64,000 bases of DNA from the NCBI GenBank assembly GCA_016191015.1, contig JACPPM010000044.1, forward strand, positions 3,862 through 67,861. Reading direction: 5' to 3'. The notes beneath the pieces were generated by a model. The model was not told the origin of the DNA. It worked only from the letters and a program-made list of their open reading frames with translations, and did no database searches. The stretch is from Acidobacteriota bacterium (GTDB lineage Bacteria > Acidobacteriota > CAIWXX01). Shown in pieces: positions 13,106-16,190 of this stretch (positions within the stretch are counted from its first letter, which is position 1; each line of letters opens with the position of its first letter). The position numbers were made by a program, and so were the translations under genes.

Positions 13106-13582
13106 TCACGCGTGTCGGACCGTTACCGCCGTATTGCCCCAAGCGATGCGCTTCGCCGTCAGGGCGTGACGAGTGTGCGGGCGCATGAGATGGATAAGGT
13201 CGAGCGCCTCTTCCTCGGTGTGGCCGCGGAGCCTCAACAAGGCGAAGGTGATCATGCCGGTGCGATGCATGCCGGCCGAACAATGGACGAGGACGGAGCG
13301 CCCCGCATCGAGCTTTTCAGAAAGGAGGACTAACGCATTGATGACGGCCGCGATGCGCCGGCCTTCCGGGGGGCGGGAGTCTTCCAGTGGCAACCATGTC
13401 CACTCCATTCCCGACGACTCGGCGGCCTCGCCGATCGCGCGTGCCCCTTCTTTTTCGGACATTAGCGTGACGACAAGCTCGCAGCCGGATTCTTTCAAAG
13501 CGAACATCGAACTCAACTTGGGCCTGTGCCAAAGGGCCATCCGCCCCTTTCCGATCTGGACCCACACAGGATTCGGCATCAC
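13106..13582 (-). CDS. Dual-specificity / tyrosine protein phosphatase (Cys-based)
   Basis: Signature VLVHCSAGMHRTG (HCx5R[ST]). The start overlaps the upstream gene's stop by 4 nt. Confidence 0.8.
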   Translation of the reverse strand: MMPNPVWVQIGKGRMALWHRPKLSSMFALKESGCELVVTLMSEKEGARAIGEAAESSGMEWTWLPLEDSRPPEGRRIAAVINALVLLSEKLDAGRSVLVHCSAGMHRTGMITFALLRLRGHTEEEALDLIHLMRPHTRHALTAKRIAWGNTAVTVRHA

Positions 13583-14292
13583 GGACCTTCGCGCTGTTTC
13601 CGCTCAACACCGCAGAAACCAGCCGCCTTCATCTCTTGGAACGAATCGATGGCGCGGTCGATGGCTCGCCTGACATCCGGATCAGATTCCGAGGAGAATT
13701 CCCTTACGAGCGCATCGGCTGCCGCGCGCAGCGTCCTGCGTTCGTCGAGATCGTAGCAGTCGTGGTCGAGATGATCGAACAGGTCGCGCAGGGCGTCCGC
13801 GGCCCGCTCTCTGACGTGCGCTTCCCCACATCTCAGGCCGTTCATCAGAAGGCCGGTCGCTTGCACCAACCTTCCATTCAGCCCGGCGTGACCTCTCACG
13901 TATCCGAAGAAATCCGGATCAGAAAGGTCTTCGGCTTCACAGGCGATCATGTCAACGGTCCTCTCGACGTTTGGCTCCTCGCGCAGGATTGCGACCTTTC
14001 CGAGCATCCTGTCCAGAACGAAGCGGCGATAGTCTATCCACATCTCCTTGCTTGCCCTGGTATCCATGATCAAGACGGTGCCGGCGAGGTGAAACGAAGC
14101 CTTTGCAGGTGTGTCCTTCCCATGATGCTCTCGCACCATGCATCGCTCCTTGTCGAGGAGCAGGCTCCTTCCCAAGGCGAGCGAAATGGCGAGGGCCATG
14201 CGCTGATTGAGATCGTAGAAACGAGGGTTCTCCAACACGACTGGATTAAGCATCCTCGACCACGCGTCCCTTTTCCTCCGAGATCGTCGCAT
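13579..14292 (-). CDS. Hypothetical protein with a helical, HEAT-like C-terminus
   Basis: Coding-looking ORF with no recognisable catalytic motif. It sits between the channel-like RyR gene and the phosphatase and is translationally coupled to the phosphatase. Confidence 0.55.
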   Translation of the reverse strand: MRRSRRKRDAWSRMLNPVVLENPRFYDLNQRMALAISLALGRSLLLDKERCMVREHHGKDTPAKASFHLAGTVLIMDTRASKEMWIDYRRFVLDRMLGKVAILREEPNVERTVDMIACEAEDLSDPDFFGYVRGHAGLNGRLVQATGLLMNGLRCGEAHVRERAADALRDLFDHLDHDCYDLDERRTLRAAADALVREFSSESDPDVRRAIDRAIDSFQEMKAAGFCGVERKQREGP

Positions 14293-14339
14293 CTAGGCCT
14301 CCCTGGAGCTCCACTCATCGGATGAGCGAAGAGAACGCT

Positions 14340-16190
14340 CTAGGCGGGATCAGTCGTGCACTGAGCCAGCCTCGACGGGTGAATGCGATAGATCTGAAAC
14401 CCGGCCCGCGCCATGCAGCTCGGAATGCTTCTGACGGTGCGCCGATTCTTCTCCTTCTCGCTTTCAGCGAGATCAGTCCAGGGAACGAGGTCCGGGTGCA
14501 ACTTCTTCTGGAGATCCCTGATGAGTCCGTGTTTCCACCCGTGCGCCTTCTTTTCCTCGACCCACCGACCATGCTCTTCTTGTGCCAGCTTCTCAATCTC
14601 GGCTTCCGCAAATAAGAAGTTATCGGCTCCGTAATCGGTCCATGGAGTGATGCCGCATCCGACCGTGATCAGCTTCCTGAGGATATCCCCTGCCTGTTGA
14701 CGATTCGTTTCCCTCACTTGTTCGGGGAGATGCTCCCATTCCACGAGGCTGGGATTGGGGGCGGCCGCACCGAGTGTGTGCCTCTCATCGCGGAGGTAGG
14801 CCTCGTGTATGACTCGAGCCAGGGTCTCGTGAGTGCCATCGTCGAGGAGACCCGGCCTACAAGTCCTATCGAGCAGTCCGAATGCCGTCAGGGTCGCCAG
14901 CTCCTCGTGGCACGAACGGACCTCGCGGAGCAACGCGGCCAGTCCTGTGTCCTCAGTCATTCGGACAAGGATTTGGATCTTCTCGGTCCGAACTCGCTGC
15001 AGAACCTCGAGGCCGGCACACAGGGCCATGGAAGAATCATCCACGCAGACATAGACATGAGTCATTTCGCACCGGTTCCGAGCGTCCCACAGCAGACTCG
15101 ACTTCCGGAACTCGGGCTTCCGAGTGTCGAAGTCGAGCGGGGTGAGGGCGCAGACGGTGTTGACCAGCGGGAAGCGCGAGCGCATCGCTTCCAGTTTACG
15201 GCTCGCCTCGGGATCGACCACCAGAATTCGCAGTGTGACGCGCGCGCGTGTGAATTCGCTGCTCCACCTCCGAGCCATGTGCACGATAAGGCTCTCGCCG
15301 AATCTGCCGAGCCCGACGATCAGCACACTGGGGGGATTTCCGTTCGGGTTCTGCTCTGCGAAGAGTGGGAATTCGCGGAGCACTTCTCGCGCTCCACTAT
15401 CGAAGATGTTAAAGAACTCTAGCCTGAAGGAGCCGCCGCCGGATGCAGTGAATTCGCGCTCACGGAGCAGAGTCCAAAGCTGTGGATCGACGATGTGAAT
15501 CGCACAGGTCAGCTTCCCCCGTTTCCGCCCCTTCGCCATGTCACGCGCCAGAACTGCCACTTCGGCATTCGCGCCATCGTCGGCGCAGACCGAAATCAGA
15601 TGCTGCGCCCGTTGCACGCCGGCCTTTCGCAGCACAGCCGCCTCCCGGGCGTCTCCAATAATGACGAACGCCCCCAGCTCCCAACTCGTCTCGACGTGCG
15701 GATTACCGGCGTCCTTTTCGACCACAACCACGCGTCGCCCTTGTTGACGGAACTCTCTGACGAGCCGCATTCCTTTTCGGCCGAGGCCGCAAATGACCAC
15801 GTGGCCGCGAAATCGTCGCAGACGGACCGCGCGGACCTGGTCGCGGAAGACAATGAGCAGCCCCTGAACAAACGCGTAGGCGGCAATCGCGGGGGAGAGG
15901 AACCTCGCGAGATCCAGTGTCCACGGCATGTGCACGCATGGATCCACATCCCCGGAGGATTCCATCACGAAGAGCTGGATGGACTGGTAGATGATACCCT
16001 TCAGGGTATACGACCTGCCTAGCATTGCGTAGTGACGCGCAAAGCCGAGAATTCCCACTCCCAGGGAAAACAGGCCGACGACGATCAGGAGCCGCCATTC
16101 GTTCTGGCGCCAAAAGGACTTAAACTTGGCAAGCAAGACCGATGATCGCAACACTGCGGCCCTCCGTTCGAGAGTGGAAATCAAGCGCAA
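14340..16190 (-). CDS. Ion-channel-like membrane protein: 2-TM pore module with a non-canonical filter, two RCK/TrkA-N Rossmann domains and a C-terminal tandem RyR-like module
   Basis: TM1 LLIVVGLFSLGVGILGF. Pore-helix/filter-like IYQSIQLFVMESSGDVD (compare K-channel TxGYGD and the CASTOR/POLLUX-type ADSGN filter). TM2 ARFLSPAIAAYAFVQGLLIVF. RCK motifs VVICGLGRKGMRLV and VLIVGLGRFGESLI. C-terminus LAQEEHGRWVEEKKAHGWKHG...LVPWTDLAESEKEKNRRTVRSIP. The TTG start at 16190 is uncertain. Confidence 0.75.
   Translation of the reverse strand: MRLISTLERRAAVLRSSVLLAKFKSFWRQNEWRLLIVVGLFSLGVGILGFARHYAMLGRSYTLKGIIYQSIQLFVMESSGDVDPCVHMPWTLDLARFLSPAIAAYAFVQGLLIVFRDQVRAVRLRRFRGHVVICGLGRKGMRLVREFRQQGRRVVVVEKDAGNPHVETSWELGAFVIIGDAREAAVLRKAGVQRAQHLISVCADDGANAEVAVLARDMAKGRKRGKLTCAIHIVDPQLWTLLREREFTASGGGSFRLEFFNIFDSGAREVLREFPLFAEQNPNGNPPSVLIVGLGRFGESLIVHMARRWSSEFTRARVTLRILVVDPEASRKLEAMRSRFPLVNTVCALTPLDFDTRKPEFRKSSLLWDARNRCEMTHVYVCVDDSSMALCAGLEVLQRVRTEKIQILVRMTEDTGLAALLREVRSCHEELATLTAFGLLDRTCRPGLLDDGTHETLARVIHEAYLRDERHTLGAAAPNPSLVEWEHLPEQVRETNRQQAGDILRKLITVGCGITPWTDYGADNFLFAEAEIEKLAQEEHGRWVEEKKAHGWKHGLIRDLQKKLHPDLVPWTDLAESEKEKNRRTVRSIPSCMARAGFQIYRIHPSRLAQCTTDPA

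Follow-up and report, generated by a model that had tools for sequence, protein, structure and literature searches.

The window analysed here is a stretch of 64,000 nucleotides from an Acidobacteriota bacterium (GenBank assembly GCA_016191015.1, contig JACPPM010000044.1, positions 3,862 to 67,861 of the forward strand), and our subject is a gene in it, henceforth gene A, whose product joins a putative two-transmembrane (2-TM) pore to two RCK Rossmann domains and a C-terminal tandem ryanodine receptor (RyR) module. With roughly even confidence, we propose that this protein is a RyR/RCK-gated cation channel that depolarizes the membrane as the effector of a nucleotide-signalling system of the TIR/STAND kind, a proposal that draws on what is shown, namely the order of its domains, the predicted fold, the conservation of residues and the genes conserved around it. 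That gene A encodes what may be termed an RCK+RyR channel-like protein we hold with high confidence, and its membership in a TIR/STAND conflict island is likely; its tetrameric state, its conduction of ions, the identity of its ligand, its immune role and the direction of signalling are matters that we infer. An earlier note, made from the nucleotide sequence, had described gene A as an ion-channel-like protein in an operon with a Cys-phosphatase (gene C), and all the features that it quoted are present in the window at the positions it gave. Its suggestion that the channel might act as an effector for the neighbouring sensor proteins has become the best-supported part of its interpretation, given a conserved neighbourhood of TIR, STAND, SLOG and NUDIX genes.

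Domain architecture of the gene A protein family

The maximal open reading frame (ORF) of gene A, 616 aa long, opens with TTG, and the form found in databases has 604 aa and begins at a GTG at position 16154 behind a GGAGG ribosome-binding site, which is the probable start. Its diagnostic motifs are QLFVMESSGDVD at residues 72-83, VVICGLGRKG at 131-140 and VLIVGLGRFG at 289-298. Pfam recovers TrkA_N at residues 131-221 (E 1.3e-19) and RyR (PF02026) in two stretches, with 72.4 bits against a gathering cutoff of 27.4, and NCBIfam yields partial matches to the RCK domains of Kch, TrkA and KefC; the homologues are labelled 'NAD-binding protein' or 'Kch' by their sources. Sequence clustering gives at least 518 homologues at 90% and at least 2,196 representatives at 50% (E<=1e-30), the top 150 of them full length, numbers by which gene A is no chance ORF. 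All 120 homologues listed are about 600 aa long and carry TrkA_N, and all but one are annotated with RyR. The family is spread patchily over many phyla, and its variants include proteins with three to four or more RyR repeats, one with a C-terminal HD domain (P0332) and one with DUF3616 (P0345).

An AlphaFold2 model of the gene A protein, based on 119 sequences (pLDDT 91.9, pTM 0.86), places in order a helix at residues 2-57 that includes TM1, a helix at 63-75, a loop at 76-89, a helix at 90-114 (TM2), two Rossmann domains and a helical tandem repeat. When the N-terminal residues 1-128 were modelled separately (pLDDT 89.5) and compared with the PDB by Foldseek, the 50 best matches were without exception pores of tetrameric cation channels (NaK, MthK, KcsA, Slo2.2, NMDA receptor); the 82-residue pore of MthK superposes with a root-mean-square deviation of 3.3-3.5 A over about 85 columns and a TM-score of 0.64-0.67. 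The succession of TM1, pore helix, filter and TM2 that the earlier note had read from the sequence is thus borne out at the level of predicted fold. Hydropathy likewise displays two peaks around a moderately hydrophobic middle. Nowhere in the N-terminus is conservation higher than in the helix-loop between the two TM segments, and channel pores are the only structures on which this helix-loop superposes. Invariant or nearly so are Y68, Q72, L73, F74, S78, G79, W90, R96 and P100, with L92 and A95 strongly conserved, and the family consensus over the pore helix and filter reads Y-x-[TS]-L-Q-L-F-x-[LM]-[EQN]-S-G. The alignment with NaK is in register at the M0/M1 junction (WxDxE[FW]) and at a D-x-x-Y-x-S pore helix, and the stretch [LM]-[EQN]-S-G sits exactly where TVGDG does in NaK.

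The T-[VI]-G-[YF]-G signature of K+ selectivity is absent both from gene A, which has MESSG, and from the family at large, in agreement with the non-canonical filter reported in the earlier note. Position 77 within the filter is occupied by E in 57% of members, Q in 18%, N in 15% and D in 6%. The P-helix and filter of the bacterial Na+ channel NavAb, YTLFQVMTLES (as checked against the NavAb sequence), match the family without gaps at Y, Q, L, E and S, which suggests a Glu/Gln ring as the putative filter. The predicted fold and the pattern of conservation favour a P-loop pore whose filter is of this type and not of the K+ kind.

Both Rossmann domains that follow retain an intact GxGxxG together with the acidic residue that ends the second β-strand (E158 in 116/119 and D326 in 119/119 homologues), with all these features at least 92% conserved in each domain. 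The first RCK domain comes directly after the inner helix. The second has no Pfam match of its own, and the two-RCK reading of the earlier note holds for both. In a Foldseek search of the PDB with the whole chain, full-length GsuK came first (E 1e-10), followed by matches that include TrkA, KtrA, RyR3 Repeat12 in its ATP, ADP and dantrolene complexes, the LjCASTOR ring and full-length MthK. On the strength of the conserved motifs, the Rossmann pair is a nucleotide-type RCK arrangement as in GsuK and TrkA, with two RCK domains per subunit.

The C-terminal module is a bona fide PF02026 tandem of the Repeat12 type, which upholds the tandem RyR-like module of the earlier note and specifies its kind. 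It matches RyR Repeat12 at E 1e-15 to 1e-19 as against about 1e-8 for Repeat34, and Foldseek aligns it to the R12 domain of RyR3 over about 190 columns (TM-score about 0.6). The linker between the repeats is short, about 20 residues and partly a β-strand in the model, and the long phospho-loop typical of Repeat34 is not present in the module. In human RyR3 R12, Trp880 and Trp994 clamp adenine nucleotides and dantrolene, and basic residues contact the phosphates (PMC12627627). The phage protein RyDEP cleaves 2'/3'cADPR (cADPR, cyclic ADP-ribose) by means of H75, W78, H100 and D117 (PMC13232231), and phage RyR Tad sequesters gcADPR with a Kd of 43 nM via H129/W132, H154 and D171 (10.64898/2026.06.04.730250). 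According to these two preprints of 2026, then, the cADPR signals bound or cleaved by phage RyR domains are made by TIR proteins. A comparable pocket is discernible in the gene A family, where a pattern H-x2-aromatic...H/N-P...D/N is kept in both repeats. Among 119 homologues H462 is invariant, Y465 is found in 117 and H540 in 109; W543 is W in 96 and F or Y in 22; R/K547 is kept in 107; and position 582 is D in 85 and N in 26 (D/N in 111), the protein of the window having N. In BFVD, a library of viral structures, the module also matches numerous phage 'Ryr domain' proteins.

Gene neighbourhoods of the family

The window holds three proteins with RyR modules within an island of about 27 kb, namely the channel-like protein, a RelA/SpoT-TPR-SLOG-RyR protein and an AAA-RyR protein; the island also includes a divergent TIR gene, a NUDIX gene and two DUF4062-STAND genes (Table 1). 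The promoter-like site of gene A lies within a divergent region of 190-220 bp that it has in common with the TIR gene. The STAND core proteins themselves are devoid of RyR domains. Both DUF4062 proteins display Pfam matches to TEP1 β-propellers and the NWD1 helix-turn-helix, and a DUF4062 'DLRWGV' loop. TeTIR is an NADase domain family with an RWG loop (10.64898/2026.09.21.753143), and judging from the RWG motif, the position ahead of NACHT and the TEP1/NWD1 matches, the DUF4062 of the window may be its equivalent. The RelA/SpoT-TPR-SLOG-RyR protein matches the PADLOC candidate PDC-S33. It also matches PHROG 9640 (E 7e-41), which indicates close RelA/SpoT-like relatives in phages.

To place this island in context we collected 80 related loci from species-representative genomes, sampled from phyla that include Chloroflexota, Bacteroidota, Ignavibacteriota, Gemmatimonadota, Planctomycetota, Acidobacteriota and Nitrospirota; the neighbours were clustered and then subjected to iterated hidden Markov model searches, and all counts refer to the 76 loci in which a channel gene was called. 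TIR genes occur in 31/76 loci, no more than 500 nt from the channel in 17, and make up about 6% of all neighbouring ORFs. They are densest close by, with 1.56 per 10 kb in the first 1 kb from the channel as against 0.24-0.49 further out, and all 23 sampled TIR segments match Pfam TIR_2, with an invariant column for the catalytic Glu. STAND NTPases are found in 25/76 loci, ten of the proteins bearing an N-terminal TIR and the others DUF4062, and NUDIX genes in 11/76. A SLOG-like protein of about 190 aa lies directly upstream of the channel in 22/76 loci and is fused to the cytoplasmic N-terminus of the channel in two proteins (P0214, P0347). Its Pfam matches are below threshold and all fall in the SLOG clan (YAcAr in 6/18, YpsA in 3/18, DprA in 2/18), and a profile search of the PDB returned no meaningful match. 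A second protein with an RyR module is encoded in 35/76 loci, being an AAA-RyR protein of about 890 aa in 22 and a RelA/SpoT-TPR-SLOG-RyR protein in 11. At least one of TIR, STAND, SLOG, NUDIX or a second RyR protein is present in 59/76 loci and, where both flanks extend to 3 kb or more, in 31/37. The best match to the channel, in a Levilinea metagenome-assembled genome (MAG; L058), is part of the same trio of channel, TIR and RelA-SLOG-RyR genes.

Within 8 kb the AAA-RyR and RelA-SLOG-RyR genes never occur together in the related loci; the window has both. Outside the channel family, a stretch with an RyR domain (Pfam E 9e-8) adjoins two TIR genes in a Verrucomicrobiaceae MAG (L093:2872-3453).

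A proposed signalling pathway and its implications

The RyR module thus sits on three unrelated effector-type bodies, in the company of TIR and STAND proteins that could make a signal and of NUDIX and SLOG proteins that could trim it, a layout characteristic of second-messenger immune systems. On our proposal the gene A protein would be a homotetrameric ligand-gated cation channel with a pore of the NaK/MthK type, two nucleotide-type RCK domains per subunit and a module resembling RyR Repeat12. When a STAND or TIR sensor responds to a trigger such as phage infection, NAD+ would be converted by the sensor's TIR or TIR-like domain into a signal derived from ADP-ribose (ADPR), which would bind the aromatic/His pocket of the RyR module, with NAD or ADP in the RCK sites as a possible co-input. 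The gating ring would then open a non-selective cation pore, and the resulting cation flux would collapse the membrane potential and lead to arrest or death of the cell, the signal being turned over by the NUDIX and SLOG-like proteins. A further extension, which we advance only tentatively and consider rather less probable than its opposite, is that the Repeat12 module is the host receptor for ADPR-type signals derived from TIR activity, so that one signal would switch a channel, a RelA/SpoT-type pyrophosphokinase and an AAA protein. The family would then constitute a new and widespread class of Thoeris-like effectors and a bacterial antecedent of the sensing of (c)ADPR or adenine nucleotides by an RyR module on a cation channel, and the phage RyDEP and RyR Tad proteins would be decoys of the host receptor.

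Antiviral systems based on signals are defined by their pairs of sensor and effector, and type X Thoeris has been validated without a known signal or receptor domain. If the above proposal is true, a host family of channels with RyR modules beside TIR and NACHT proteins would supply the missing host receptor and explain the RyR-domain sponges of phages. Gene A would also offer a tractable model of about 600 aa for the coupling of nucleotide binding by RyR Repeat12 to the gating of a cation pore, a question that animal physiology has yet to settle and that extends to the long dispute over how cADPR acts on ryanodine receptors. Should the immune interpretation be wrong, the family would still be an uncharacterized RCK-gated channel with a non-K+ filter. 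In the literature we found no description of a bacterial TrkA_N+RyR channel or of a host RyR effector, and an earlier mention in Burroughs 2015 NAR or in the rhodanese-phosphatase paper is possible.

Relationship to known channels and defence systems

The closest structural analogue is GsuK of Geobacter sulfurreducens (PDB 4GX0-4GX5), in which a 2-TM pore is likewise followed by two RCK domains with NAD/ADP sites. Unlike GsuK and MthK, which have the TVGYG filter, gene A has [LM]-[EQN]-S-G and an additional C-terminal RyR module; its sequence identity to them is just 14-17%, and the Ion_trans_2 profile does not match it. The non-selective channel NaK of Bacillus cereus has the same spacing as the family between the pore-helix Y and the post-filter P, but its filter is TVGDG as opposed to LESGx and it lacks cytoplasmic domains. 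With NavAb, whose filter reads TLESW, the family shares a gapless Y-x-x-x-Q-x-x-x-L-E-S, a likeness at the level of the motif only; gene A has neither voltage sensor nor P2 helix, and pores of bacterial Na+ channels of this kind are not among the top Foldseek matches. A non-K+ filter combined with a ring of two RCK domains per subunit is also seen in the plant nuclear-envelope channels CASTOR, POLLUX and DMI1, the LjCASTOR ring (6o7a) being matched by Foldseek at E 2e-6. CASTOR differs in having four TM helices and no RyR module, and Castor_Poll_mid (PF06241) has no Pfam match in gene A. We take the CASTOR filter to be FV[A/L][D/E]SG, of the ADSGNHA type, and on this assumption the likening of the two filters in the earlier note looks reasonable.

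In the R12 domain of animal ryanodine receptors the aromatic pair and the basic residue that serve adenine nucleotides and dantrolene are those kept in gene A, and in both cases the domain is borne by a tetrameric (in gene A, predicted) cation channel. The animal protein, however, is a 6-TM Ca2+-release channel of 5,000 aa with an embedded R12, as against 600 aa, two TM segments and an R12-like module placed after the RCK domains in gene A. The phage RyDEP and RyR Tad proteins, an anti-Thoeris glycosidase and sponge, share PF02026 and the H-x2-W...H...D pocket with gene A. They are small, soluble, viral and directed against defence, whereas gene A is encoded by the host and fused to a putative effector, as would befit the receptor side. 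TRPM2 is a cation channel gated by ADPR, and SLOG/MHR and NUDT9H domains are part of it. Its set of parts (cation channel, SLOG, NUDIX and the logic of an ADPR-type ligand) recurs among the neighbours and fusions around gene A, but the two architectures are not homologous, the pore types differ and the sensor proposed here is RyR.

Type X Thoeris comprises the TIR protein ThsB and the ion-channel effector ThsK, and has been validated as a defence against phage, although its signal is yet to be identified (10.64898/2025.12.03.692087). As at the locus of gene A, a TIR gene stands beside the gene of a P-loop-type channel. The channel next to the TIR cluster of that system is a protein of 213-248 aa with a TLTYGG filter and neither RCK nor RyR, the TIR belongs to a subfamily other than that of the neighbours of gene A, and the islands around gene A are multi-gene, with STAND, NUDIX and SLOG components. 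The notion that the gene A family is ThsK of type X was rejected, as the pore and RyR models matched nothing in 80 loci of that TIR cluster. In four loci (L088:3246-3989, L089:3348-3986, L090:3330-3989, L091:3324-3989) a protein of 213-248 aa that has no Pfam match is encoded upstream of a type-X-like TIR and is presumably the ThsK effector; the L088 copy, the only one that was read, has the K-channel-like filter 'AFTLTYGGFSP'.

Genes B and C and the phosphatase link

Genes A, B and C form a same-strand operon as the earlier note had it: a gap of 47 nt with a GGGAGG ribosome-binding site lies between A and B, and the B stop codon and the C start codon overlap at GTGATG within ..CCGTGATGCC.. 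(as GTGA, or as TGATG with an ATG start). A scan for promoter- and terminator-like sites found none between the three genes. Gene B has no family match in Pfam, NCBIfam, PADLOC or PHROGs and, in a set of 5.8 billion clustered proteins, only 2 homologues, at 73-78% identity. Gene C is best matched in Pfam by PTP-SAK (5e-10) and Tc-R-P (6e-9), with DSPc matching too; PADLOC and PHROGs contain nothing for it, and for gene A they yield only RyR and RCK fragments. Neither B nor C has a homologue in the related channel loci fetched, and a Cys-phosphatase of any kind is found in 0/76 of these loci, both by phmmer (E<=10, --max) and by a search of 746 ORFs for the HCxxGxxR motif.

Beyond the window, the B-C cassette is confined to close relatives. 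L083 is without a channel, and one strand there encodes DUF4062-NACHT-WD40, WD40, NUDIX, RelA/SpoT-RyR, B and phosphatase in succession; in L082 a RelA-SLOG-RyR gene 89% identical to that of the window precedes the cassette; and in L081 the cassette follows an IS66 fragment. In L081 (2218-3747) it adjoins a gene with a DruA domain as well as the IS66 transposase fragment, which suggests that rearrangement within regions of the defence type is how the cassette moves. More distant homologues of the phosphatase, about 50% identical, occur in unrelated contexts. Given the lack of the enzyme from all 76 loci and the presence of the cassette behind another RyR gene or IS66, B-C belongs to the island as a lineage-specific accessory, lies 3' of whichever RyR gene is at hand and is no partner of the channel family.

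Weighing of the alternatives

Several observations count against an immune channel effector. With regard to the pore, the Foldseek E-values of the pore-only model are weak (0.06-0.6, best 0.058, none below 1e-3); a PDB profile search with 33 N-termini found NaK as the sole match at a sub-threshold E of 0.15; an hhalign comparison of the N-terminal profile with the MthK sequence was not significant (1.5% probability); E is present at filter position 77 in only 57% of members, with Q or N in 33%; and what is modelled is the monomer, homotetramerization and ion conduction being putative. The earlier note had held that its channel identity would fall if structure prediction failed to show a re-entrant pore loop or a tetrameric pore, or if profile searches placed the N-terminus outside the channel families: the predicted fold does have the re-entrant pore helix, and 0/33 N-termini match Ion_trans_2 or any other channel family in Pfam at E<=10. 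With regard to the signal, RyR positions 565 and 582 vary across the family, and since animal R12 binds plain ATP and ADP (PMC12627627), an ordinary adenine nucleotide might be what the module binds. With regard to the immune role, no phage-defence phenotype is known for the channel-RCK-RyR family and PADLOC has no model for the channel. TIR genes are found in 41% of the channel loci rather than in all, a figure limited by the length of the flanks, and the TIR gene of the window is divergent from the channel and not in its operon. The comparison of DUF4062 with TIR by hhalign was not significant (0.8%), and isolated prokaryotic TeTIR homologues had no NADase activity in vitro (10.64898/2026.09.21.753143).

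It is conceivable, if rather unlikely, that the protein is an immune channel effector with another trigger, its RCK sites sensing the fall of NAD+ (or the rise of ADPR or ADP) caused by a TIR NADase and its RyR module being only an ATP/ADP co-regulator or a degrader of the signal. The intact GxGxxG and ribose-binding acidic residue of both RCK domains, the crystallization of GsuK with NAD and ADP (4gx2, 4gx1), the binding of ATP/ADP by animal R12 and the retention by most members (D582 in 85/119) of the catalytic His/Asp pair of RyDEP are all consistent with this explanation. However, it leaves unaccounted for the presence of RyR on three unrelated bodies, only one of which has RCK domains, and against it, too, is the nanomolar affinity of phage RyR proteins for cADPR isomers. 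An unlikely prospect, too, is that of a housekeeping or metabolic channel of the Kch/GsuK type, perhaps for K+, which would be gated by adenine nucleotides and have its TIR and STAND neighbours by coincidence. The annotation of homologues as 'Kch' or 'NAD-binding protein', the partial NCBIfam matches and the 6/37 well-flanked loci without any associated gene would fit such a channel. Yet 78-84% of loci include TIR, STAND, SLOG, NUDIX or a second RyR protein, and the peak of TIR genes close to the channel, the patchy phyletic distribution, the filter without a K+ signature and the Rosetta-stone fusion with the SLOG-like neighbour are hard to reconcile with a housekeeping role.

The failure of channel profiles to match the N-terminus could also mean that it is a mere membrane anchor for a tethered nucleotide-binding scaffold or enzyme (an RyR-type glycosidase or sponge) or for a homotypic RyR adaptor, and in its favour RyDEP-type RyR domains dimerize and can be enzymes (PMC13232231), and the coupling of effector-associated domains is a principle that exists in such islands. 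We regard this as highly unlikely in view of the conservation of the helix-loop between the TM segments and its superposition on channel pores only, the RCK domain placed directly after the inner helix as is the hallmark of gated channels, and the N at position 582 of the window protein in place of the catalytic D; the adaptor version in particular is down-weighted because the STAND cores lack RyR, contrary to the rule of adaptor coupling. Finally, the earlier note had drawn a parallel with animal ryanodine receptors in which the RyR repeats would be a phosphorylation hotspot dephosphorylated by the dual-specificity phosphatase of the operon. The co-directional arrangement of A, B and C and the position of B-C just 3' of an RyR-ending gene in 3/4 instances (the channel in the window, RelA-SLOG-RyR in L082 and L083) speak for it. 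We nevertheless consider it most improbable, because there is no kinase among the domain matches in the island, the module is of the Repeat12 and not the Repeat34 type and with its short linker lacks the phospho-loop, and the link to the phosphatase is not conserved, the cassette following a different RyR gene in relatives and distant phosphatase homologues lying in unrelated contexts. The best-matching Pfam families of the phosphatase (PTP-SAK, Tc-R-P, PTP-NADK) are moreover those of conflict systems, and we presume that their substrates may be nucleotides. An interpretation by signalling between TIR/STAND proteins and RyR modules should replace the phosphatase story.

Features of the window

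Table 1. Positions of gene A, its parts and the surrounding genes in the window
Feature	Position	Strand	Remarks
DUF4062 (RWG loop)-NACHT/STAND-WD40, candidate sensor	5241..9710	(+)	
Terminator-like hairpin downstream of gene C	13027..13045	(-)	consensus match only
Gene C, DSP/PTP-type Cys-phosphatase, 158 aa	13106..13582	(-)	HCSAGMHRTG; start overlaps gene B stop
Gene B, 237-aa near-orphan	13579..14292	(-)	always followed by the phosphatase
Gene A, channel-like protein	14340..16190	(-)	616 aa as maximal ORF; 2-TM pore (predicted), RCK1, RCK2, tandem RyR
Tandem RyR (Repeat12-like) module (residues ~450-605)	14376..14843	(-)	Pfam, Foldseek
RyR repeat 1 pocket	gene A residues H462/Y465/N479/N496	(-)	alignment
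RyR repeat 2 pocket	gene A residues H540/W543/K547/H565/N582	(-)	alignment
RCK2 Rossmann domain (residues ~286-447)	14850..15335	(-)	GLGRFG and D326 invariant; aligns to tandem-RCK structures
RCK1 Rossmann domain (residues ~129-275)	15366..15806	(-)	GLGRKG and E158, near-invariant in family
TM2/inner helix (residues 90-114)	15849..15923	(-)	conserved W-E-L-E-x-A-R, invariant P100
Pore-helix-like helix (residues 63-75) and filter loop MESSG/linker (76-89)	15924..16004	(-)	AlphaFold2, conservation
TM1 (residues 31-57)	16020..16100	(-)	preceded by basic amphipathic N-terminal helix; hydropathy peak 2.16
Sigma-70-like promoter match upstream of gene A	16208..16236	(-)	consensus match only
Zn-ribbon + TIR_2 + HEAT-like protein	16377..18263	(+)	divergent from gene A, ~190 bp apart
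RelA/SpoT + TPR + SLOG (LSDAT_prok, weak) + C-terminal tandem RyR	18631..21144	(-)	second RyR-module protein
NUDIX hydrolase upstream of RelA-SLOG-RyR gene	21219..21623	(-)	pairing recurs in related loci
Second DUF4062-STAND (NWD1-like HTH), WD40	22910..27445	(-)	
892-aa protein: uncharacterized N-terminal domain of ~400 aa, AAA, tandem RyR	29363..32041	(-)	third RyR-module protein

Near the island the window further encodes a HEPN protein (1307-1945, plus strand), a VIT+vWA protein (2579-5167, plus strand), an AAA+ protein of the sigma-54-activator type (27512-29203, minus strand) and an SPFH/Band-7 protein (32459-33685, plus strand). A 199-aa ORF at 10078-10677 on the minus strand joins a DUF4032 fragment to a C-terminal HPr-like (PTS-HPr) domain, an unusual pairing.

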